From the NCBI GenBank assembly GCA_965221855.1, contig CBDCSV010000001.1, positions 365,592 through 429,591 of the forward strand: DNA of 64,000 nucleotides, read 5' to 3'. This stretch comes from Rhodospirillales bacterium. GTDB taxonomy: Bacteria; Pseudomonadota; Alphaproteobacteria; Rhodospirillales; UBA2165. The position numbers and the translations under genes are program-made. This document shows, piece by piece, positions 1,075-57,285 of this stretch; the stretch's first letter is position 1, and every line of letters begins with the position of its first letter. The notes under the pieces were generated by a model. That model made no database searches. It saw only the letters and a list, made by a program, of their open reading frames with translations, and was not told where the DNA came from.

Positions 1075-3390
1075 ATGGACGCAATTGCCCCAAAACCTCT
1101 GGTCAATCCGGCCTTCGACGGCGGCGCCACGGCCCTGCCCGATGGCCAGTACAAATCGGCCTGCCGCATGTGTCATGGGGGCTGCGGCACCATCATGCAC
1201 GTGGAAGCGGGTAAGCTGGTCCACATCGACGGCGATCCCGACAACCCGATGAACCGGGGCAAGCTGTGCCCCCTGGGAGCGGCCAGCCTGGAGCAGGTCT
1301 ACAATCCGTCCAGGCTCAAATATCCCATGCGCCGGGCCGGCGAACGAGGCGAGGGCAAGTGGGAGCGCATCTCCTGGGACGACGCCTACGACGAGATGTG
1401 CGCCAGGATTCGCGAGGCCACCGGGCGCGACGGCGCCGAGAGCATCTGGGTGGGCACCGGGACCGGACGCCACCATTTCGGTTATGTCTCCCGATTCGCC
1501 AACGCCATCGGCACCCCCAACTGGTGCGAGCCGGGCACCGCCCAGTGTTTCCGGCCCAGGGTTCACGGATCGATCATCACCATGGGCCAGCTGCCCATCT
1601 GCACCTATACCAACGAGGCGCAGCCGGACCTGATCCTGTTCTGGGGCCACAACCCCATCTATTCCGGGCCCGACGGCGAATTGGGCTTCGGGGTGAAGGA
1701 TGCCTTGGCCCGCAAGCCCAAGATCATCGTCGTCGACCCGCGCGAGACCATGCTCGCCAAGAGGGCCGACTACTTTCTCCAGCTTCGCCCCGGCACCGAC
1801 GATGCGTTGGGGCTCGCCATGCTCAACGTAATCATCGGCGAAGAGCTCTACGACAAGGAGTTCGTCGGGAAATGGACCCACGGCTTCGACCGGCTCGCCG
1901 AACGGGTCGAGCAATACACGCCCGAGTGGGCCCAACCCATTACATGGGTGAAGGCGGACGACATCCGGGGCGCGGCGCGGCTCTATGCCGAGACTAGGCC
2001 CTCCATGCTGGAATGGGGGTGCGCCATCGAGCACACGCCGGCCTGCTTCCAGACCGTCCGCGCGCTGCTCTGCCTGCCGTCGATCACCGGCAATATCGAT
2101 CAGCCGGGGGGCTGGGCGTTCGGCATGATGGGCATCGCGCCGCTGCCGCAGCTGTTCGACAAGATGCCCATGGAACAGCAGAGGAAGCGCCTGGGCTATG
2201 ACGACTACAAGGTGCTGTCGGGCGAGTTGGCGCAGCTGCCCTCGGCCCACATCCCCAGCATCTTCGATGCCATCCGCACCAGGAAACCCTATCCGGTCAC
2301 CACCGGACTGATCTTCGGCAACAATGCGCTCTCCACCTACGGCGAGGTGGACGTTGTCTACGAGACCCTGACGGCCCTCGACTACCTGATGGTCGCCGAG
2401 CTCTACATGACGCCGACCGCCGAGCTCGCCGACCTGGTGCTGCCGGTGTCCACCTGGGCCGAGGTGGACGCGCTGCCCGCCGTGCCGTTTTACGGCCAGA
2501 ACGTGTTGCTCGCCCAGCAGAAGGTGGTGCAGGTGGGCGAGTGCGTGCAGGACGAAGTGATCATGACCGAGATCTGCCGCCGCCTCGGCACCGAGTTCGG
2601 CCGGGAGAGCCCGGAAGAGGTCTACGATTCCATGCTGGCGCCCAAGATGGGCATGAGCTTCGCCGAGCTGCGGGAGAGGGGGTTCGTCCAGCCCGAGTTC
2701 AAGTACCGCAAATACGAGGAGAACGGCTTCAACACGCCGACCGGCAAGATCGAACTCTATTCCACCCGGATGGAGGAATGGGGCGACGACCCGCTGCCCT
2801 ATTTCGAGGAACCCCCCGAAAGCCCCTATGCGACGCCGGAACTGGCCGAGGAATATCCCTTCATCCTGATCACCGGCGCGCGGCTGCCCACGTATTTCCA
2901 GTCCGAATACCGGCAGATGCCGACGCTCCGGCGCGGGCGGCCGGAACCCGAATGCGAACTACACCCGGAGACGGCGGCCGAACTGGGCGTAGAGAACGGC
3001 GACTGGGTGTCCATCGAGACCAAGAGGGGCAAGTGCCGCCAGAAGGTGCGCATCTTCGAGGGCATCGATCCCCGGGTCGTCCATGCCCAGCACGGCTGGT
3101 GGTTCCCGGAGGACGACGACAGCCCCGACCACGGCATCTGGCGCTCCAACGCCAACACGCTCACCTCCATGCAGCCGCCCTATTGCAAGTCCATGGGCAC
3201 CTATCAGCTCCGCGCGCTGTTGTGCAAGATGGTCAAGGCCGACGAGGCGGACGAGCCGTGGCGGCCGCCCCGCATCGCCGCCATGGACGGCAAGTGGCGC
3301 TCCAACGTCGCGGACGTCCAGGACTGGGACGAGGCCGAGATCAAGGCTTGGCGCGAAATGCGCGGCGGCAAGAAACAGCGCCGGGTTTAA
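1075..3390 (+). CDS. Molybdopterin-dependent oxidoreductase catalytic subunit (MopB / DMSO-reductase superfamily), apparently cytoplasmic
   Basis: 771-aa ORF. N-terminal [4Fe-4S] motif CxxCxxxC...C (CRMCHGGCGT...GKLCPLG). Length and layout are typical of bis-MGD enzymes. No twin-arginine signal. Charged ~60-aa C-terminal tail. Confidence 0.85.
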   Translation: MDAIAPKPLVNPAFDGGATALPDGQYKSACRMCHGGCGTIMHVEAGKLVHIDGDPDNPMNRGKLCPLGAASLEQVYNPSRLKYPMRRAGERGEGKWERISWDDAYDEMCARIREATGRDGAESIWVGTGTGRHHFGYVSRFANAIGTPNWCEPGTAQCFRPRVHGSIITMGQLPICTYTNEAQPDLILFWGHNPIYSGPDGELGFGVKDALARKPKIIVVDPRETMLAKRADYFLQLRPGTDDALGLAMLNVIIGEELYDKEFVGKWTHGFDRLAERVEQYTPEWAQPITWVKADDIRGAARLYAETRPSMLEWGCAIEHTPACFQTVRALLCLPSITGNIDQPGGWAFGMMGIAPLPQLFDKMPMEQQRKRLGYDDYKVLSGELAQLPSAHIPSIFDAIRTRKPYPVTTGLIFGNNALSTYGEVDVVYETLTALDYLMVAELYMTPTAELADLVLPVSTWAEVDALPAVPFYGQNVLLAQQKVVQVGECVQDEVIMTEICRRLGTEFGRESPEEVYDSMLAPKMGMSFAELRERGFVQPEFKYRKYEENGFNTPTGKIELYSTRMEEWGDDPLPYFEEPPESPYATPELAEEYPFILITGARLPTYFQSEYRQMPTLRRGRPEPECELHPETAAELGVENGDWVSIETKRGKCRQKVRIFEGIDPRVVHAQHGWWFPEDDDSPDHGIWRSNANTLTSMQPPYCKSMGTYQLRALLCKMVKADEADEPWRPPRIAAMDGKWRSNVADVQDWDEAEIKAWREMRGGKKQRRV

Positions 3391-3947
3391 CCTCGGAAAA
3401 TCAAGAGACGCTCCAGTCCGTCGTCGACGCCGAACAGGCCGGATTTGTATGAGTGGACGGTGTGGTGGTAGTCAAAGGATAGACCTACCCGTAGCCAACC
3501 GCCCGGCGGCTTCTTACCTGGGAACAAATAGTTCCACCCGCCGCCAAGAGCCTCATGCTTGTCGACGGATCCGAGGCTTTCGATGGGATGCGAAACCTCA
3601 CGTGTGCCGAGAAGGTTGCGAACGATCAAAACGCGGTGATCGGTGATCGCATAGAGGTACCGGCCGGCTGCAAGCAGATACCAGACCGGTCGGAACAGCA
3701 TGACGATGCCCACGCCGACAAACAGCAGGCCGGCGAGAAGAAATAGAACCAGCACTTGCTCCGCATTGATTCTCTCGATGGTGCCGGGGATGTCGCCCCA
3801 ATCGACGAAGAAGCCCAGCCAGAAATACATGAACACCAGAAAGACCGCGCCCATAAGCACCTGGATGCGGCCAAGCTGCCAAGCCATGGCCAAGGGCCGG
3901 GGCCGGCCGGCCCAGCGGAGGCTTTCGCCGGGCTCGATCAGCGCCAT
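3387..3947 (-). CDS. Small membrane protein, two TM helices plus a PH-like (bPH) soluble segment
   Basis: 186-aa ORF. Hydrophobic helices VLMGAVFLVFMYFWLGFFV and VLVLFLLAGLLFVGVGIVMLF are followed by YAITDHRVLIV. 4-nt convergent overlap with the previous gene. Confidence 0.55.
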   Translation of the reverse strand: MALIEPGESLRWAGRPRPLAMAWQLGRIQVLMGAVFLVFMYFWLGFFVDWGDIPGTIERINAEQVLVLFLLAGLLFVGVGIVMLFRPVWYLLAAGRYLYAITDHRVLIVRNLLGTREVSHPIESLGSVDKHEALGGGWNYLFPGKKPPGGWLRVGLSFDYHHTVHSYKSGLFGVDDGLERLLIFRG

Positions 3948-4032
3948 GGCATCGGAATAGGGATCGGACAGGGAGGTTCGCCAACAAATTCTTGTTGGGT
4001 GGAAAGTAGAGCAGCGCGGCTACCCGATCAAT

Positions 4033-4693: not shown

Positions 4694-5443
4694 TTACCTG
4701 ACGCTGATCTTGTCGAGCACCCAGAGCGCCCCGAACAGGATCGGCTGGTGGATCAAATAGATCAGCAGCGTCGTCCGGCCCATCCAGCGGAGCAGGTCCG
4801 GAATCCGGCCCTCGGGCTTCCACCCTTCCAGCCGCCGCATGATCCCGGGCGAGCCGAGCAGCAACTGCATGAAGGCGAAGCCCAGCAGCGTGGCGCCGAA
4901 CCACGGAAAGATGGGCACGTAATCGACGGAGAAGGGCGGGTTGGCGGCGAACCCGATCCAGGCGAGCTGGCGGATGTCGAAGAACGAAAGGTTGACGTCG
5001 AGCCCGAGAAATATCACCGCCGCGCCGCAGAGCGCGACGGCCCAATAGGGAAGGCCCGCGAAGACGACGATCAACAGGCTGGCGATGGCGAGGTTGTGGA
5101 GGATGCCGAAGAACACGAGGCCCTCCTCGAACACCGTCGCCGTGGCGATGGTGACGACGATGGCCGCGGCGAGGATGCGCGTAAACCGGTTGAGGAATTT
5201 CTGCGGGTCCATGGCCGTGCGCCGCGCAAGCGCATGGCTGATCCCGGAGGCAACCAGGAAGATGCTGATGATGAACGTCCGGGCGGCGAGCCAGAAGGGG
5301 TCGTTGAACAGGTCCACCTCGGCGTAGCCGAAGAACGACAGGTCCCAGGACAGGTGGTAGAGGATCATCAGGGCGATCCCGACCCCGCGGAGCAGGTCGA
5401 GGGCGTCGATGCGGGCCGGCGCCGCTGATGCCGGCGGCGCCAT
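4694..5443 (-). CDS. Multi-pass membrane protein, DUF1624 / heparan-alpha-glucosaminide N-acetyltransferase-like acyltransferase family
   Basis: Track ORF 4694..5617 trimmed to Met59 (MAPPASAAPARIDALDLLRGVGIALM...) because the upstream part runs into the repeat element. Many TM helices and the RIDxLDxLRG N-terminal motif. Confidence 0.65.
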   Translation of the reverse strand: MAPPASAAPARIDALDLLRGVGIALMILYHLSWDLSFFGYAEVDLFNDPFWLAARTFIISIFLVASGISHALARRTAMDPQKFLNRFTRILAAAIVVTIATATVFEEGLVFFGILHNLAIASLLIVVFAGLPYWAVALCGAAVIFLGLDVNLSFFDIRQLAWIGFAANPPFSVDYVPIFPWFGATLLGFAFMQLLLGSPGIMRRLEGWKPEGRIPDLLRWMGRTTLLIYLIHQPILFGALWVLDKISVR

Positions 5444-33569: not shown

Positions 33570-33585
33570 ATCCGGCTAGAGCGTT

Positions 33586-34257
33586 TCATATTTTGACGGA
33601 AGCGTATCCTGCGTTTTTGAAGTAGTTGGCGCATTGCTGTGGCTCGATGGTGTCGATGAGGCTCCCGAGATGGCGCCATAAGTCGTCGATCTCCCGCTTC
33701 TGGGCGTTTCTCATCCAGTGCTTGATTTGGGCAAAGGTCTGCTCGATGGGATTGAGGTCGGGGGAATATTTGGGCAGGAGCCACAGCTTGGCTCCGGCGG
33801 CACGGATGGCGTTTCGCACGGCTTTTGACTTGTGGCTGCCGAGATTGTCCATGATGACGATGTCGCCGGGCACCAGGGTCGGCACGAGCAGCTGCTCGAC
33901 GTAGGCGCGGAAGCACACGCCATTGATGGGGCCGTCGAAGACGCAGGGCGCGGTGAACCGGTCGCAGCGCAGCGCGCCGATGAAGGTCAGGGTGTGCCAC
34001 CGCCCATGGGGGGCAAAGCCGCGGACCCGCTCCCCTTTCGGCCCCCAGCCGCGCAGCGGGGCCATATTGGTCCGGATCCAGGTTTCATCAATGAATACCA
34101 GCCGTTCGGGATCAAGCTTTGCCTGCCACGCCTTCCAGCGCCTGCGATGGCGGGCGATGTCCGCGCGCGCCCGTTCAACGGCGAACAGGGTTTTTTTTAA
34201 AGCGCAGCCCTTCACGGCGCAGAAACAGCCATACCGTGCTGTGGGATACCCTGACAC
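33586..34257 (-). CDS. IS630-family transposase, DDE catalytic part (orfB), +1 frame relative to orfA
   Basis: LVFIDETWIRTNM..., IVIMDNLGSHKS..., LPKYSPDLNPIEQTFAQIK form the DD(34-35)E-type triad context of IS630/Tc1-mariner. The frame joins orfA if one A of the A8 run is skipped. Confidence 0.85.
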   Translation of the reverse strand: MSGYPTARYGCFCAVKGCALKKTLFAVERARADIARHRRRWKAWQAKLDPERLVFIDETWIRTNMAPLRGWGPKGERVRGFAPHGRWHTLTFIGALRCDRFTAPCVFDGPINGVCFRAYVEQLLVPTLVPGDIVIMDNLGSHKSKAVRNAIRAAGAKLWLLPKYSPDLNPIEQTFAQIKHWMRNAQKREIDDLWRHLGSLIDTIEPQQCANYFKNAGYASVKI

Positions 34258-34534
34258 CCCGAGCGGCCAACTCGTCTCTCAACCGATGCAGCGTCAGATG
34301 CGGCTCCTGGTCGATCCGGCCGACAATGAACTCCCGATGGGGCTCAAGAACCCGGCGGCGGTGACCGCCCATCTTGCCGGGCGCAACACTCCCCGTCCGC
34401 CGGTAGCGCTGCGACCACTTAACCACGCTCGAAACCGCAACCCCAAACCGAGCCGCTACAGCGCGGCAACTCTCCCCCGCCAAAACCGCCAAAACAACAC
34501 GCTCTCGCAAATCAATCGAATAAGGTCTCGCCAT
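34175..34534 (-). CDS. IS630-family transposase, N-terminal HTH part (orfA)
   Basis: MARPYSIDLRERVVLAVLAGESCRAVAARFGVAVSSVVKWSQRYRRTG... Ends just after an A8 run (complement of 34191-34198). Confidence 0.85.
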   Translation of the reverse strand: MARPYSIDLRERVVLAVLAGESCRAVAARFGVAVSSVVKWSQRYRRTGSVAPGKMGGHRRRVLEPHREFIVGRIDQEPHLTLHRLRDELAARGVRVSHSTVWLFLRREGLRFKKNPVRR

Positions 34535-34627
34535 GAATGCTGGCCTCCTTGCCCAGCATCCATCTTGAATCATGGTTCGCCCATACTTGGGAATCCCTAA
34601 AATGATTCAATCAATCTCAAATACGCT

Positions 34628-35485
34628 CTAGCCCGCCGGGGTCCAATCGAGCCCGATATTCGCCGCGGGCGCCGAGTGGGTCAGCCGCCCCACCGACACG
34701 TAATCGACACCGGACGCCGCCACCGCCTTGATGTTGTCCAGGGTGACGTCGCCCGACGCTTCGGTGGTGCAGCGGTTATCGATGATTTCGATGGCCCGGC
34801 GCATGTCGTCCGGGCTCATGTTGTCCAGCAGGATGCGCTCCGCGCCCGATTCGGCGGCCTCGGCGACCTGCTCCAAGGTGTCGCACTCCACTTCGACGTG
34901 CTTCAGGCCGGCGTCGATGGCCCGGCGAACCGCCTCGCCGATGCCGCCCGCGACCGCCACATGGTTGTCCTTGATCAGCACGCCATCGTCGAGGCGCATG
35001 CGGTGGTTGGTCGCCCCGCCCATCCGGGTCGCGTATTTCTCCAACTGCCTGAGGCCCGGAATGGTCTTGCGGGTGTCCAGAAGCACCGTGTTCTCCGGGG
35101 CGATGGCGTTGGCGTAGGCCCGCGTGAGCGTTGCGATGCCGGAGAGGTGCTGGACGAAATTTATCGCCGTGCGTTCCGCGGCGAGAAGCTCGCCCGCGGG
35201 ACCGGAAATCCGGGCCAGGGCGGTTCCCGCTTCAACCGCTTCGCCCTCGGCGACGAGTGTTTCGAATGAAATTCCGGGCGACAGCTTTTCGAAAACCAGC
35301 TCGGCGATCCCCAGCCCGGCGACGACAACGGGTTCCCGCGCCGCCATGACGCCCTCGAAATCCATCTCCTCGGGGATGACGGCCCGGGACGTGATGTCGC
35401 CCTTGCCCACATCTTCGGCGATGGCCGCATCGACGATCCGGTTGACCTCGTCGGCATCCAGGTCGGCTGGCAGATTGGCGGTCAT
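34628..35485 (-). CDS. nadC: Nicotinate-nucleotide diphosphorylase (carboxylating)
   Basis: Track ORF trimmed to MTANLPADLDADEVNRIVDAAIAEDVGKGDITS... Motifs LLDTRKTIPGLR and MLDNMSPDDM. Its TAG stop is the CTAG at the IS end. Confidence 0.88.
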   Translation of the reverse strand: MTANLPADLDADEVNRIVDAAIAEDVGKGDITSRAVIPEEMDFEGVMAAREPVVVAGLGIAELVFEKLSPGISFETLVAEGEAVEAGTALARISGPAGELLAAERTAINFVQHLSGIATLTRAYANAIAPENTVLLDTRKTIPGLRQLEKYATRMGGATNHRMRLDDGVLIKDNHVAVAGGIGEAVRRAIDAGLKHVEVECDTLEQVAEAAESGAERILLDNMSPDDMRRAIEIIDNRCTTEASGDVTLDNIKAVAASGVDYVSVGRLTHSAPAANIGLDWTPAG

Positions 35486-46426: not shown

Positions 46427-46557
46427 TCCGTCCATCCTCGAAGTTCGATATGGCTTCAAATTCCGGCAATTAGCGTTCAATATTGGGCGAATGTCCACCC
46501 GAAGAAGGGTGGCGAAATATGGGACGCATGTGGACGGCCAGGTGGGAGCCTTGGGTC

Positions 46558-47562
46558 ATGGCAAGTGATGATCGTTTAGTCGAAATCGGTGAGCTGCCGG
46601 TGCTTGATACCGGCCCCTTTCTCGCGGGCGAGGAAGGTGCGCTGGAAGCGTTGGCGGATCAATTCCGCGATGCGTGCGAGAATGTCGGCTTCTTTTTCAT
46701 CCGCAATCACGGGGTCGGTGACGACCTGATCGAACGGATATTCGCCGAGACCCGGCGCTTTCACGATTTGCCCATCGAAGAAAAGATGAAGCTCGAGATC
46801 AACGTGAACCAGCGGGGCTATATCAAGCCCGGCTTCACCATGGTCAAGCACTCCACCTATAACGAGAACACCAAGTTCGACAGCACCGAAGTGATGGTGT
46901 TCGCGACCGAATATCCCGAAGACGACCCCAACCGGCAGGCAGGCAAGTTCTTTTACGACGAAAACCAGTGGCCGGACGATTTGCCCGGTTTCCGGGAAAC
47001 GGTTCGGGAATACATGACCACGCTGACGAATCTCGGCAAGACGCTGTTGCCGGTTTGGGCGACGGCGCTGGATTTGGAGAAGGACTTCTTCAAACCGTAT
47101 TTCGAGAACAACTACACCTATTTCCGGATGGCCCACTATCCGCCGGTGCCGGATCTGGGGGACAACGAGTTCGGGCTGGGCCCGCATGCCGATACGGGCT
47201 TCATGACCTTCCTGCCGCAGGCCGATGTGGACGGGCTGGAAATTCTCGACGTGGACGGCAACTGGTTCCGCCCGCCGCGCATGGACGACGCCATTCTGGT
47301 CAATACCGGCCAATTTCTGGGCCGCTGGTCCAACGACCGGTTCCGCGCCACGCCCCACCGGGTCATTCCGCCCAGGGACACGGATCGCTACTCCATCGCG
47401 CTGTTCGTGAACAGTGCGTTCGAGCCGGTGTGCGAATGTCTGCCCACCTGTACCGGTCCCGGCAATCCTCCCAAGTACCCGGCCGAGTCCTACTGGGAAT
47501 TCTATCGCTGGTACATGGCCAATACCTATCCCCATTACGGCGAGTTCGACGCCGCCGAATAG
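46558..47562 (+). CDS. 2-oxoglutarate/Fe(II)-dependent oxygenase (isopenicillin-N-synthase family)
   Basis: Start trimmed to MASDDRLVEIGELPVLD. HxD facial triad GLGPHADTGFMTFL, distal His and Arg in RATPHRV. Confidence 0.78.
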   Translation: MASDDRLVEIGELPVLDTGPFLAGEEGALEALADQFRDACENVGFFFIRNHGVGDDLIERIFAETRRFHDLPIEEKMKLEINVNQRGYIKPGFTMVKHSTYNENTKFDSTEVMVFATEYPEDDPNRQAGKFFYDENQWPDDLPGFRETVREYMTTLTNLGKTLLPVWATALDLEKDFFKPYFENNYTYFRMAHYPPVPDLGDNEFGLGPHADTGFMTFLPQADVDGLEILDVDGNWFRPPRMDDAILVNTGQFLGRWSNDRFRATPHRVIPPRDTDRYSIALFVNSAFEPVCECLPTCTGPGNPPKYPAESYWEFYRWYMANTYPHYGEFDAAE

Positions 47563-47685
47563 CCCGGTTCCGCGGACCGAATGCGGCGGAACGCACCGCC
47601 TGGAACGTTATCGCCAAGGCTCGATCGCTGCTTTAAGGTGGCGACAGTCTTGGGACTAGGACCCGAGCGAAACGTGGAGAATTAA

Positions 47686-48333
47686 ATGAGCTTAGAAGAA
47701 AAACTTGCCGCTATCCGCGAGGCCGGCGCCAAGCGGATGCCGGAGGAAGTTCGGGCCGTTATGGGCGCCGCGACCAAGGAACTGGCGGAATCCGGTATCC
47801 TCGATACCTGCATCAAGGTCGGCGACGCGCTGCCGGCCTTCTCGCTCCCCAACTCGCGGGGCGAGACGGTGAATTCGGCCGATCTGCTGGCCAAGGGCCC
47901 GGTGGTCCTGACCGTCTATCGAGGGGAATGGTGACCCTACTGTAATGCGGAGCTGTATGCTTTGCAGGAAGTACAGGACCAGATCGAAGCCGCCGGCGCG
48001 ACCTTGGTGGCGCTTTGCCCCCAGCTGGCCGAAAAGACCCAGGCCATGGTCGAGAAGCATGACCTGACCTTCGACATCCTCACCGACGCCGGCAACGACT
48101 ATGCCGCCGAGCTCGGCATCAAGTTCCAGGTGCCGGACGAGGTGAAGAAGATTTACGAGGGTTTCGGTCTCGACCTGCCGGGAACCAACGGCGACGACAG
48201 CTGGACGCTGCCCATTCCGTCGCGGCTGGTGATCGACGGCTCCGGCGTCGTCCGCGCGGCCGATATCCACCCGAACTACACGACCCGGCCCGAGCCCGAG
48301 AAGACCTTGGCCGATCTCGAGGCCCTCGGCTGA
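47686..48333 (+). CDS. Peroxiredoxin-like thiol oxidoreductase (AhpC/TSA, PRX_like2 type) with in-frame TGA at the catalytic Cys position: candidate selenoprotein (alternative: pseudogene)
   Basis: Track ORFs 47686..47934 and 47962..48333 are in the same frame. The joined sequence reads ...VVLTVYRGEW-[TGA 47932-47934]-PYCNAELYALQE..., where the family motif as I recall it is (F/Y)RGxWCPYCN. GGAG lies upstream of ATG 47686. Confidence 0.6.
47940..47967 (+). other. Candidate bacterial SECIS hairpin immediately downstream of the in-frame TGA
   Basis: CUGUAA/UUGCAG (6 bp including one G-U), a U-U mismatch, GC/GC, and a 10-nt apical loop GGAGCUGUAU. The hairpin starts 6 nt after UGA. Confidence 0.3.
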
Positions 48334-48354: not shown

Positions 48355-48396
48355 AAAAGGCGGTCCCCGGGTCTCGAGCGGGGCCGCCTTTTTTTT
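48355..48396. terminator. Bidirectional rho-independent terminator between the convergent prx-like and GYD genes
   Basis: AAAAGG-GGCGGTCCCC-loop-GGGGCCGCC-TTTTTTTT. GC-rich stem flanked by an A run on one side and a T8 run on the other. Confidence 0.75.
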
Positions 48397-48399
48397 CGT

Positions 48400-48693
48400 C
48401 TACGGAAGGGAACTGACGATGGCCTCGGCCTCGTCCGAATCGAACGCCCGGAGCGTGGTCGTCGATAGAAATCCGAGACCACCGAGCGCCAGGGCGAATC
48501 TGGCGACGGCTTCGCCGTCCGGCGCCTCGACGATGCCGACCCGGTCATAGGAGCCCATGGTCAGGTAATTGGCCACGATATTCACCCCGCACTTTTCGGC
48601 GAGGTCCTCCGCCTGTTTGCGGCGGTTCGGGGTGTCCTTGATCCCCGCCACGCCGTCCTGCGTGAAGTTCATGAGCATGATGAACGTTGCCAT
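48400..48693 (-). CDS. GYD domain-containing protein
   Basis: Last 97 codons of track ORF 48400..49077, starting MATFIMLMNFTQDG... Contains TMGSYDRVGIVEAPD (GxYD). GGGAGAG SD upstream. Confidence 0.72.
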   Translation of the reverse strand: MATFIMLMNFTQDGVAGIKDTPNRRKQAEDLAEKCGVNIVANYLTMGSYDRVGIVEAPDGEAVARFALALGGLGFLSTTTLRAFDSDEAEAIVSSLP

Positions 48694-48885
48694 AAGTCTC
48701 TCCCGGATTAAGTGGTGTGGTGCGTCTCTTGATGTGCGGCATGTCCATCCCCTGGAATGGACGATTGGCCGCTGGTCCCATGCTAACTCAATTCCACGGA
48801 ATCCTGAACATTCCGTGAGGACTGGAACGGCGCCTGGTGGCGTTCTATGATCAGGTGTCGACAACCGAGCCGCCGGAAGCGTTCC

Positions 48886-49155
48886 ATGAAGCGCCTCGTC
48901 CGACCACTGACCGCATTTATGCTCGTTGCTCTGGCCTTTGCGCCCGAACCCGCGCCGGCAAGCGAGAAGGGCCGGAAATGCGATGGCGAGCAGGTTGTGG
49001 TGACTCAAATGGGGCTGACCATCCCCCGAATCGTCCGAGAGGTATCGTTGCGTTGCGATCCCGAGGTCGGCCTGCACGTCGGTGAGGCAGGCTGTTCTTG
49101 CCGGGTGGAGATGCGGATGTCGCTCTTCTGGCCTTCCGGCGCGGTTCAGACCTGA
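48886..49155 (+). CDS. Hypothetical secreted protein (possibly the 5' part of a frameshifted gene)
   Basis: MKRLVRPLTAFMLVALAFAPEPAPASE looks like a signal peptide. No family recognised. Confidence 0.3.
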   Translation: MKRLVRPLTAFMLVALAFAPEPAPASEKGRKCDGEQVVVTQMGLTIPRIVREVSLRCDPEVGLHVGEAGCSCRVEMRMSLFWPSGAVQT

Positions 49156-56019: not shown

Positions 56020-56122
56020 CCCATCCCCCGTCGTTTCCCTGCTACAGTCGAACGCCGCGTCGGCGCACTATTCCGGTCTACCGCGCCCGTGGGGACTCCT
56101 CCACCTGGAAGGCTAGAGCGTT

Positions 56123-56794
56123 TCATATTTTGACGGAAGCGTATCCTGCGTTTTTGAAGTAGTTGGCGCATTGCTGTGGCTCGATGGTGTCGATGAGGCT
56201 CCCGAGATGGCGCCATAAGTCGTCGATCTCCCGCTTCTGGGCGTTTCTCATCCAGTGCTTGATTTGGGCAAAGGTCTGCTCGATGGGATTGAGGTCGGGG
56301 GAATATTTGGGCAGGAGCCACAGCTTGGCTCCGGCGGCACGGATGGCGTTTCGCACGGCTTTTGACTTGTGGCTGCCGAGATTGTCCATGATGACGATGT
56401 CGCCGGGCACCAGGGTCGGCACGAGCAGCTGCTCGACGTAGGCGCGGAAGCACACGCCATTGATGGGGCCGTCGAAGACGCAGGGCGCGGTGAACCGGTC
56501 GCAGCGCAGCGCGCCGATGAAGGTCAGGGTGTGCCACCGCCCATGGGGGGCAAAGCCGCGGACCCGCTCCCCTTTCGGCCCCCAGCCGCGCAGCGGGGCC
56601 ATATTGGTCCGGATCCAGGTTTCATCAATGAATACCAGCCGTTCGGGATCAAGCTTTGCCTGCCACGCCTTCCAGCGCCTGCGATGGCGGGCGATGTCCG
56701 CGCGCGCCCGTTCAACGGCGAACAGGGTTTTTTTTAAAGCGCAGCCCTTCACGGCGCAGAAACAGCCATACCGTGCTGTGGGATACCCTGACAC
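56123..56794 (-). CDS. IS630-family transposase orfB (copy 2)
   Basis: Identical to 33586..34257. The A8 run is at the complement of 56728-56735. Confidence 0.85.
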   Translation of the reverse strand: MSGYPTARYGCFCAVKGCALKKTLFAVERARADIARHRRRWKAWQAKLDPERLVFIDETWIRTNMAPLRGWGPKGERVRGFAPHGRWHTLTFIGALRCDRFTAPCVFDGPINGVCFRAYVEQLLVPTLVPGDIVIMDNLGSHKSKAVRNAIRAAGAKLWLLPKYSPDLNPIEQTFAQIKHWMRNAQKREIDDLWRHLGSLIDTIEPQQCANYFKNAGYASVKI

Positions 56795-57071
56795 CCCGAG
56801 CGGCCAACTCGTCTCTCAACCGATGCAGCGTCAGATGCGGCTCCTGGTCGATCCGGCCGACAATGAACTCCCGATGGGGCTCAAGAACCCGGCGGCGGTG
56901 ACCGCCCATCTTGCCGGGCGCAACACTCCCCGTCCGCCGGTAGCGCTGCGACCACTTAACCACGCTCGAAACCGCAACCCCAAACCGAGCCGCTACAGCG
57001 CGGCAACTCTCCCCCGCCAAAACCGCCAAAACAACACGCTCTCGCAAATCAATCGAATAAGGTCTCGCCAT
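56712..57071 (-). CDS. IS630-family transposase orfA (copy 2)
   Basis: Identical to 34175..34534. Confidence 0.85.
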   Translation of the reverse strand: MARPYSIDLRERVVLAVLAGESCRAVAARFGVAVSSVVKWSQRYRRTGSVAPGKMGGHRRRVLEPHREFIVGRIDQEPHLTLHRLRDELAARGVRVSHSTVWLFLRREGLRFKKNPVRR

Positions 57072-57285
57072 GAATGCTGGCCTCCTTGCCCAGCATCCAT
57101 CTTGAATCATGGTTCGCCCATACTTGGGAATCCCTAAAATGATTCAATCAATCTCAAATACGCTCTAGCCGCAATCCGGATCGATGTCCATAAATCTCCG
57201 CGCGCCGCCGTTCGCGGCCCTTATGGCCGCGGACGCGGCAGGTGACGACGGCGAGGGTTTTGACCAAGGCCGGCGCGGGTTCCGG

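Follow-up and report, generated by a model that had tools for sequence, protein, structure and literature searches.

An in-frame UGA in a peroxiredoxin-like gene of a Rhodospirillales bacterium is very probably recoded as selenocysteine

Introduction

Does an in-frame UGA that interrupts an otherwise intact gene end translation, or is it read as selenocysteine (Sec)? The question is raised by a peroxiredoxin (Prx)-like gene on the forward strand of a 64,000-nucleotide stretch of DNA from a Rhodospirillales bacterium, which is referred to as the window. The frame from the ATG at 47686 to the TGA at 48331-48333 contains a single internal TGA (47932-47934, codon 83) in the context VYRGEW-TGA-PYCNAEL, and the surrounding translation becomes GEW-U-PYCNAELYALQEVQDQIEAAGATLVALCPQLAEK when this codon is taken as Sec (U). 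An earlier interpretation made from the letters of the window without database searches (hereafter the sequence-only reading) had described the same frame, uninterrupted except for this one codon, as is borne out by direct inspection, and had considered Sec read-through more likely than a fresh nonsense mutation.

The sequence-only reading had also stated that Prx-like selenoproteins with a UxxC motif have been described, and this is correct. A 'Prx-like protein' family of bacterial selenoproteins was reported some twenty years ago (Zhang, Fomenko & Gladyshev 2005, PMC1088965), the Global Ocean Sampling (GOS) study has an entry 'Prx-like 1, pfam00578, UxxC' that comprises 225 selenoproteins along with 2,740 Cys homologues (Zhang & Gladyshev 2008, PMC2398784), and a 2026 review names the family 'Prx-like thiol:disulfide oxidoreductase' (PMC13188914). 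The analysis presented here leads us to conclude that codon 83 of the window gene is recoded as Sec, with a probability of roughly 0.93; the residual doubt stems from the Sec machinery, which was not seen in the DNA searched, and from the computational nature of the evidence.

Codon 83 in related genes

A total of 167 related loci was fetched, 80 by a scan of one genome per species and 80 from JGI metagenomes, complemented by further contigs. The aligned codon 83 is TGA in 97 of them (76 distinct contexts), a Cys codon in 69 and a Ser codon (TCA) in one; the TGA-bearing loci range from 45 to 97 % identity to the window protein. In the species-genome scan, TGA is present in all 11 loci at 66-97 % identity, which stem from Rhodospirillales/Alphaproteobacteria metagenome-assembled genomes (MAGs) including one 4.56-Mb chromosome (OZ243926.1, L010, 95 % identical), while all 69 loci at 48 % identity or less have TGT or TGC (cyanobacteria, Ktedonobacteria and others). 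Every locus at least 66 % identical carries TGA (15/15, 11 of them GTDB species genomes), as do all 80 JGI metagenome loci at 45-67 % identity. The genome that carries the window gene is GC-rich (63.6 %) and has Rhodospirillales MAGs as its nearest relatives. Among 68 aligned protein matches the residue at this position is Cys in 61 and Trp in seven, the latter resulting from mistranslation of TGA. An alignment of orthologues, proposed as a check by the sequence-only reading, therefore comes out in its favor, with TGA in close relatives (97 loci) and TGT or TGC in distant ones (69), and the window gene has its TGA where homologues have Cys, as is characteristic of selenoprotein genes.

Such a distribution bears directly on the most trivial explanation, that is a recent TGC-to-TGA nonsense mutation, a pseudogene or a sequencing error, with translation ending at codon 83 and the remainder of the gene decaying. 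A single base change would be sufficient for this, and public gene callers do stop at the TGA, yielding open reading frames (ORFs) of 82 and 123 aa. However, 97 loci that were assembled independently and range from 45 to 97 % identity have the TGA in common, and the 76 distinct contexts identify these as orthologues and not as assembly copies of one sequence. Furthermore, the downstream half evolves under constraint, as set out below, and this explanation is refuted by the combined pattern of conservation and selection; we assign it practically no probability.

Purifying selection on both sides of the UGA

Nei-Gojobori dN/dS ratios fall between 0.05 and 0.30 in codons 1-82 and 84-214 alike, for close as well as distant pairs including those with dS >1, and the downstream half of the orthologues is free of further stops and frameshifts. 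Both the UGA and the frame downstream of it are conserved in orthologues under purifying selection, which is a second characteristic of genuine selenoprotein genes. Within the window gene, the GC contents of the first, second and third codon positions are 0.66, 0.48 and 0.84 upstream of the TGA and 0.66, 0.34 and 0.80 downstream of it, and the statement of the sequence-only reading that coding quality is undiminished past the TGA stands. When the whole window was scanned for in-frame TGA codons with 50 stop-free, well-composed codons on each side, the one at 47932-47934 was the only one retrieved; the scan is composition-based, and loosened settings applied to related loci gave mostly false positives in antisense frames.

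A truly split gene, in which an 82-aa N-terminal piece ends at the TGA and a 123-aa piece is re-initiated at TTG 47962, has to be considered as well. Many orthologues have TTG or ATG at the position corresponding to 47962, which is the reason why gene callers begin an ORF there. On the other hand, this codon is CTG, CTT, CTA or CTC in 28 of the 76 distinct TGA-bearing (Sec-type) genes, and the 12 genes with CTT, CTA or CTC lack a bacterial start at this site. The 27-nt spacer encodes P-Y-C-N-A-E-L-Y-A, and its nine codons between TGA and TTG 47962 show synonymous changes only within the window's clade. The split would sever both the redox motif and the helix that carries it, and the invariant C86 would come to lie in an untranslated spacer. 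We regard this arrangement as extremely improbable. Given the dN/dS values on both sides of the UGA, the purely synonymous changes in the spacer and "restart" codons that are no starts, a pseudogene, a sequencing error and a split gene giving two polypeptides can be excluded for practical purposes.

A SECIS hairpin restricted to UGA-containing genes

Bacterial Sec insertion sequence (SECIS) elements reside within the reading frame immediately 3' of the UGA, and the sequence-only reading had indeed pointed to a hairpin between 47940 and 47967. The presence of a hairpin in this region is confirmed, albeit in another register than originally drawn. Counted from the U of the UGA (nt 1, 47932), the stem consists of nt 15-22 and nt 28-35 and closes a 5-nt loop (nt 23-27). 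The 5' arm (47946-47953) reads UGCGGAGC, the apical loop (47954-47958) UGUAU and the 3' arm (47959-47966) GCUUUGCA. The register first proposed (47940-48 with 47959-67, a 10-nt loop starting with GG, 6 nt after the UGA) is not supported: in 66 distinct orthologue sequences only 70.5 % of its cells are paired, which is the level of shuffled sequences, and its two central pairs are mostly unpaired. The conserved loop is UGUAU and the stem begins 11 nt after the UGA. In the register given here 91.7 % of cells form standard pairs, a value that drops to 26-53 % when the 3' arm is slid and that was reached in none of 500 shuffles.

Folded alone, the hairpin has a minimum free energy (MFE) of -10.1 kcal/mol (z -3.8; as stable in 0 of 200 shuffles). 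The fold of 71 nt around the UGA yields a z of only -1.25, and the clear signal comes from the hairpin alone and from the orthologue comparison. The hairpin at 47946-66 agrees in all respects with the properties compiled for bacterial SECIS elements (PMC13188914): an apical loop of 3-9 nt (here 5 nt), an upper stem of 4-16 bp (8 bp), a G within the first two loop positions that is usually followed by G or U (U-G-U), a UGA-to-loop spacing of 16-37 nt (19 nt) and an MFE no higher than -7.5 kcal/mol.

The sharpest evidence is provided by the stem codons, which were compared between the 76 distinct Sec-type genes and those Cys-type genes that encode the same residue. The Glu codon at +6 after the UGA is GAG in 76/76 Sec-type genes, while Cys-type genes use GAA (35) and GAG (13); the Leu codon at +7 is CTG in 76/76 as opposed to 28/59; the Ala codon at +9 is GCT in 75/76 as opposed to 6/60. 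These codons are fixed in Sec-type genes only, and codon choice is constrained at the RNA level. In agreement, the mean MFE of the 21-nt segment is -8.95 kcal/mol in Sec-type and -1.22 kcal/mol in Cys-type genes, with no overlap between the two groups (Mann-Whitney p ~1e-15). A natural control for the association of hairpin and TGA is offered by two loci that are equally distant from the window gene. L088, which has TCA (Ser) in place of TGA and falls within the window's Sec clade, has lost the stem (CTG to GTG, TAT to TGT, GCT to GCG and TTG to CTG), whereas L087 (59 % identity), from an organism of lower GC content, retains TGA together with an identical hairpin core. TGA conservation, purifying selection and a hairpin confined to TGA-bearing genes jointly back the original preference for Sec read-through over a fresh nonsense mutation.

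Compensatory changes are visible in parts of the stem. Pair 16-34 is G-C in 47 orthologues, C-G in seven and U-G in three, and pairs 18-32 and 19-31 alternate among G·U, A-U and G-C. The stem also couples residues +5 (47947-49) and +11 (47965-67): Ala (GCR) at +5 goes along with Gln or Arg (C..) at +11, and Leu (CUG) at +5 pairs with Gly or Glu (G..) at +11 in Sec-type loci. It is this coupling that underlies the swap from G-C to C-G at pair 16-34. In Cys-type genes, where residue +5 is mostly Leu, the coupling is absent.

Is the UGA decoded as selenocysteine?

Several observations weigh against reading the UGA as Sec. Two-sided covariation, which the sequence-only reading had suggested looking for, is modest and found in three of the eight hairpin pairs, even though the pairing as such is well conserved (91.7 %). 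With one exception in 66, the three apical pairs are invariant, so that the argument for them is conservation; at the internal pair 19-31, 7 of the 66 orthologues have a G·A mismatch. The sequences compared are phylogenetically related, and part of the hairpin's conservation is due to its overlap with the conserved residues E-L-x-A-L. A search of the whole window against Rfam at gathering thresholds gave no match. Neither SelA, SelB nor SelD was detected by tblastn with E. coli queries, whether in the 64-kb window or among 1.67 Mb of flanking DNA from related loci, and ARAGORN found no tRNA-Sec there, the window being devoid of any tRNA and the flanks containing only tRNA-Met. The Sec competence of the organism is thus deduced from the gene evidence, and the support for selenium incorporation, activity and substrate is computational. 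Sec-decoding genes usually sit elsewhere in the genome, and their absence from window and flanks is for this reason uninformative. Sec systems are documented in Alphaproteobacteria, in many of which selC lies nested within the 3' end of selB (PMC8124441).

The same negative results would be in line with decoding of the UGA as something other than Sec, either by a near-cognate tRNA (Trp or Cys) whose read-through is stimulated by the hairpin or because UGA is a sense codon (code 4 or 25), and some gene callers have in fact written Trp at codon 83 of orthologues. But TGA ends the Prx-like gene itself as well as 15 of the 34 well-supported ORFs in the window (support judged by composition), of which it is the commonest stop. 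As TGA is an ordinary stop and a single in-frame TGA occurs in 64 kb, the genetic code is not reassigned. A Trp at codon 83 would destroy the CxxC center, and homologues lacking the TGA all have Cys with the exception of three that have Ser and fall inside the Sec clade. In addition, spacing and loop G of the hairpin fit the SelB-type SECIS model, and in some hosts adjacent genes belong to established selenoprotein families. Non-Sec decoding is consequently very unlikely, and recoding as Sec remains by far the best account of codon 83.

The adjacent genes just mentioned are of two kinds. A gene of the AhpD_rel_CFYUT family (NF041238, 5.7e-144; motif C-F-Y-U-T-T-S-H) adjoins the Sec-type gene in L118 (~4026, minus strand) and L129 (~4034, minus strand), and a UGSC-family gene (PF24696, 2.9e-44) does so in L128 (1493, plus strand). 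Each of them has an in-frame TGA followed by a hairpin on its 3' side. Established selenoproteins next to other Sec-type loci lend indirect support to Sec decoding, and the AhpD neighbors echo the pairing of Prx-like and AhpD-like genes already remarked upon in the GOS paper (PMC2398784). L108 harbors tandem Sec-type Prx-like genes (3001-3642 and one with its TGA at 4008, plus strand), the second of which encodes W-U-Q-Y-C and shares the SECIS core (AAUGCAGAGCUGUAUGCUUUGCAG).

By analogy with E. coli fdhF, the hairpin at 47946-66 with the G in its small apical loop would be bound by the SelB·GTP·Sec-tRNA(Sec) complex. Competing with release factor 2, SelB would then deliver Sec to a ribosome that has the UGA in its A site, and translation would run on to the ordinary TGA stop at 48331.

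The predicted protein and its active site

When Cys is substituted for U, Pfam AhpC-TSA (1.3e-25) and Redoxin (1.9e-20) are both found in the product, in a region (residues 45-191) that spans the TGA; the PF00578 score is 90.2 bits versus a cut-off of 26. An AF2 model was made of P0003, a Cys homologue of the same length and 57 % identical to the window protein. In this model (pLDDT 96.7), two N-terminal helices (residues 3-17 and 20-34) lead into a thioredoxin/Prx fold, and residue 83 directly precedes helix 84-95. Its best PDB matches are BCP/PrxQ proteins (3hjp, TM 0.90 on target; 5epf), followed by oxidoreductases of the ResA type. The gene product is best explained as a 215-residue cytoplasmic redox protein with a BCP/PrxQ-like fold and a two-helix extension at its N-terminus.

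The sequence-only reading had taken codon 83 to be the peroxidatic or redox Cys of a W-C-P-x-C motif. The second designation holds, as the thioredoxin-family protein 3hdc has the first Cys of its W-C-P-Y-C motif at the position of U83. The first does not: U83 aligns with the Ser of F-S-P-V-Cp in the BCP of Aeropyrum (2cx3), and the counterpart of the peroxidatic Cys (Cp) in 2cx3 and 5epf is C86, invariant in 68/68 family members. As is typical of Prx proteins, C86 is a peroxidatic-type Cys on the first turn of the active-site helix. The canonical Pro and Thr/Ser of the PxxxT/SxxC motif are missing in the alignment: the Pro position is occupied by Arg79, which is invariant in the family, and the Thr/Ser position by U83 (Cys in homologues). 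As judged from these alignments, the motif is a thioredoxin-like UxxC superimposed on a Prx active site devoid of the canonical Pro and Thr. A candidate for the conserved active-site Arg of Prx proteins is R180 (…SRLVID…), which members of the Sec clade have but which occurs in only 48/68 family members; it lies beyond the end of the PDB sequence alignments.

U83 caps the N-terminus of helix 84-95 and C86 lies in its first turn, and the two residues would form a U-P-Y-C redox center that presumably cycles between the selenol/thiol and selenenylsulfide states. The protein would reduce a peroxide or a disulfide and might be re-reduced by a thioredoxin- or glutathione-type system; beyond the selenol/thiol redox center, any function can be suggested only tentatively. 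NCBI names the Cys homologues 'peroxiredoxin-like family protein', which fits the PRX_like2 family (CDD cd02970) mentioned in the sequence-only reading, and we know of no member of the UxxC subfamily that has been characterized biochemically. The subfamily might even represent a mechanistically distinct selenoperoxidase rather than a simple thiol-disulfide oxidoreductase. In such an enzyme, the peroxide could be attacked by the N-cap selenol, with C86 as the possible resolving residue, which would reverse the roles known from Prx and PrxU. We consider this rather unlikely.

Exchange between Sec, Cys and Ser

A neighbor-joining tree was calculated for 252 distinct members of the family, 163 with Cys, 86 with Sec and three with Ser at this position. 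It is distance-based, midpoint-rooted and rough, and it implies at least five changes of state from a Cys root. Sec-type genes fall into at least two blocks, and the Ser variants nest in the window's Sec clade. This picture fits the known dynamic exchange between Sec and Cys. The Ser variants, among them L088 102-770 (P0002) and P0004, have the motif W-S-P-F/Y-C, and the TCA codon is one mutation away from TGA; they are probably Sec-to-Ser losses that left an SxxC protein behind.

Genomic setting

The features of the gene are collected in Table 1. The strong terminator that the sequence-only reading had placed at its end is present, with the stem GGCGG-CCCCG / CGGGG-CCGCC and a folding energy of -32.3 kcal/mol (z -3.5) for the segment.

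Table 1. Features of the Prx-like selenoprotein gene in the window.
Feature	Position	Strand	Evidence or remark
Shine-Dalgarno-like GGAG	47676-47679	+	6 nt 5' of start codon; read from sequence
Prx-like selenoprotein gene	47686-48333	+	215 codons + stop; Sec very probable at codon 83
UGA codon 83, very probably Sec, first residue of U-P-Y-C	47932-47934	+	TGA in 97 loci, TGT/TGC in 69, TCA in 1
TGT codon 86, partner Cys of UxxC	47941-47943	+	equivalent to Prx peroxidatic Cys; invariant in 68/68
Bacterial SECIS hairpin within the coding sequence	47946-47966	+	folding energy, pairing, stem-codon fixation
Ordinary TGA stop codon	48331-48333	+	sequence
Intrinsic terminator, G+C-rich stem 48359-48388 and U8 48389-96	48359-48396	+	folding

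Upstream of the gene lies a 2OG-Fe(II) oxygenase gene (DIOX_N + 2OG-FeII_Oxy; 46483-47562, plus strand), downstream and on the opposite strand a gene for a GYD-domain protein (48400-49077, minus strand). Both neighbors recur in the close relative L001 and are missing in L003 and L004, so that there is no conserved operon around the Prx-like gene. An exact direct repeat of 1,060 bp is present at 33574-34633 and 56111-57170, 22.5 kb apart, and on the minus strand each copy encodes 230 aa with similarity to the DDE_3 transposase of Pfam (5.3e-37). The exact identity and the transposase ORF in each copy mark the repeats as identical IS630-like elements. They flank the stretch 34634-56110, which holds the selenoprotein gene. 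Because identical copies bracket this stretch, a composite transposon is possible, and the Prx-like gene might travel on it.

A candidate for a further Sec codon, the TGA at 5292 in the related locus L117, was rejected, as it is the true stop of an IscA-like gene and an exonuclease-like ORF follows in frame.

Consequences for annotation

Public gene calls routinely split genes of this family or write Trp at codon 83 in the collections searched. Six of the closest 15 protein matches comprise only 122-123 aa and cover the C-terminal 57 % only (five at 93-96 % identity; further ones at 63-67 %), which is explained by a gene caller stopping at the corresponding TGA. At the DNA level, four contigs of this kind contain an 82-aa ORF, the TGA, 27 nt and a 123-aa ORF in the same frame. 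Trp is found at codon 83 in 8 of 72 full-length database proteins examined, namely P0001 and seven of the 68 aligned; for P0001, encoded by L087, the codon is TGA at the DNA level and the caller had used code 4. Mis-called examples are proteins P0001, P0016-P0019, P0023, P0025 and P0026 and loci L001-L015. No NCBIfam model reaches its cut-off on the window protein, a shortfall consistent with the gene being missed in public gene calls.

The value of the present case lies mainly in annotation, given that 97 of the 167 related loci fetched carry TGA. Its scientific weight is small, as one more well-supported member is added to a long-catalogued selenoprotein family. By-products are a corrected SECIS register, a SECIS signature for the family and the demonstration of systematic mis-calling. 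The SECIS core GAGC-UGNNN-GCU is a clean marker that can be used for rescuing mis-called genes, and it illustrates how an RNA element inside a reading frame limits the choice of both codons and amino acids.

Comparison with known systems

The window gene belongs to the Prx-like 1 family: it encodes a pfam00578 domain, has UxxC with U first instead of TxxU and is similar to listed members. Reads listed under '#Prx-like 1' in GOS Dataset S1 contain …VFRGHWUPYCNAELYALQEV…NGDESWTLPIPSR… (PMC2398784), and the window protein aligns with one of them, JCVI_READ_1565530, over 189 aa at 53 % identity (E 2e-73). The shared stretch WUPYCNAELYALQEV shows that this orthologous group has already been published as a selenoprotein, and since the family was catalogued from ocean metagenomes in 2005-2008, the present case is an annotation gap and not a discovery. 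The window copy is no different in kind; its source genome is GC-rich (63.6 %), with Rhodospirillales MAGs as closest relatives.

The hairpin resembles the bacterial SECIS consensus of bSECISearch, whose prototype is E. coli fdhF, in its location inside the ORF right after the UGA, its small loop and the G at loop position 2. It differs in the family-specific core named above, which doubles as the codons for E-L-x-A. This comparison covers the consensus; the fdhF element itself has a bulged U that the window's hairpin lacks.

PrxU (TxxU, NF040737) and the Sec-containing Prx of marine metagenomes have the Prx fold and a Sec in the active-site turn in common with the window protein, which is nevertheless not a PrxU. 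In PrxU, however, Sec replaces the peroxidatic Cys (T-x-x-U), while in the window protein it would be located three residues upstream in the Thr slot, with Cys at the Cp position; the window protein scores 17.6 bits with NF040737 against a cut-off of 270. The closest structural counterparts are BCP/PrxQ proteins (3hjp, 5epf, 2cx3; TM 0.85-0.90 on target, rmsd 2.4 Å), whose Cp corresponds to C86. Sequence identity to them is low (18-22 %), and the window protein has Arg79 for Pro, U83 for Thr/Ser and an additional N-terminal two-helix extension of 40 residues. The ResA/TlpA/DsbE oxidoreductases (W-C-x-x-C) are second-tier matches in sequence and structure and share a motif of the W-C-P-x-C type at the helix N-cap. 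They are membrane-anchored or periplasmic, whereas the N-terminus of the window protein is hydrophilic and helical with no obvious signal sequence, and its scores with the respective NCBIfam models are all far below the cut-offs.

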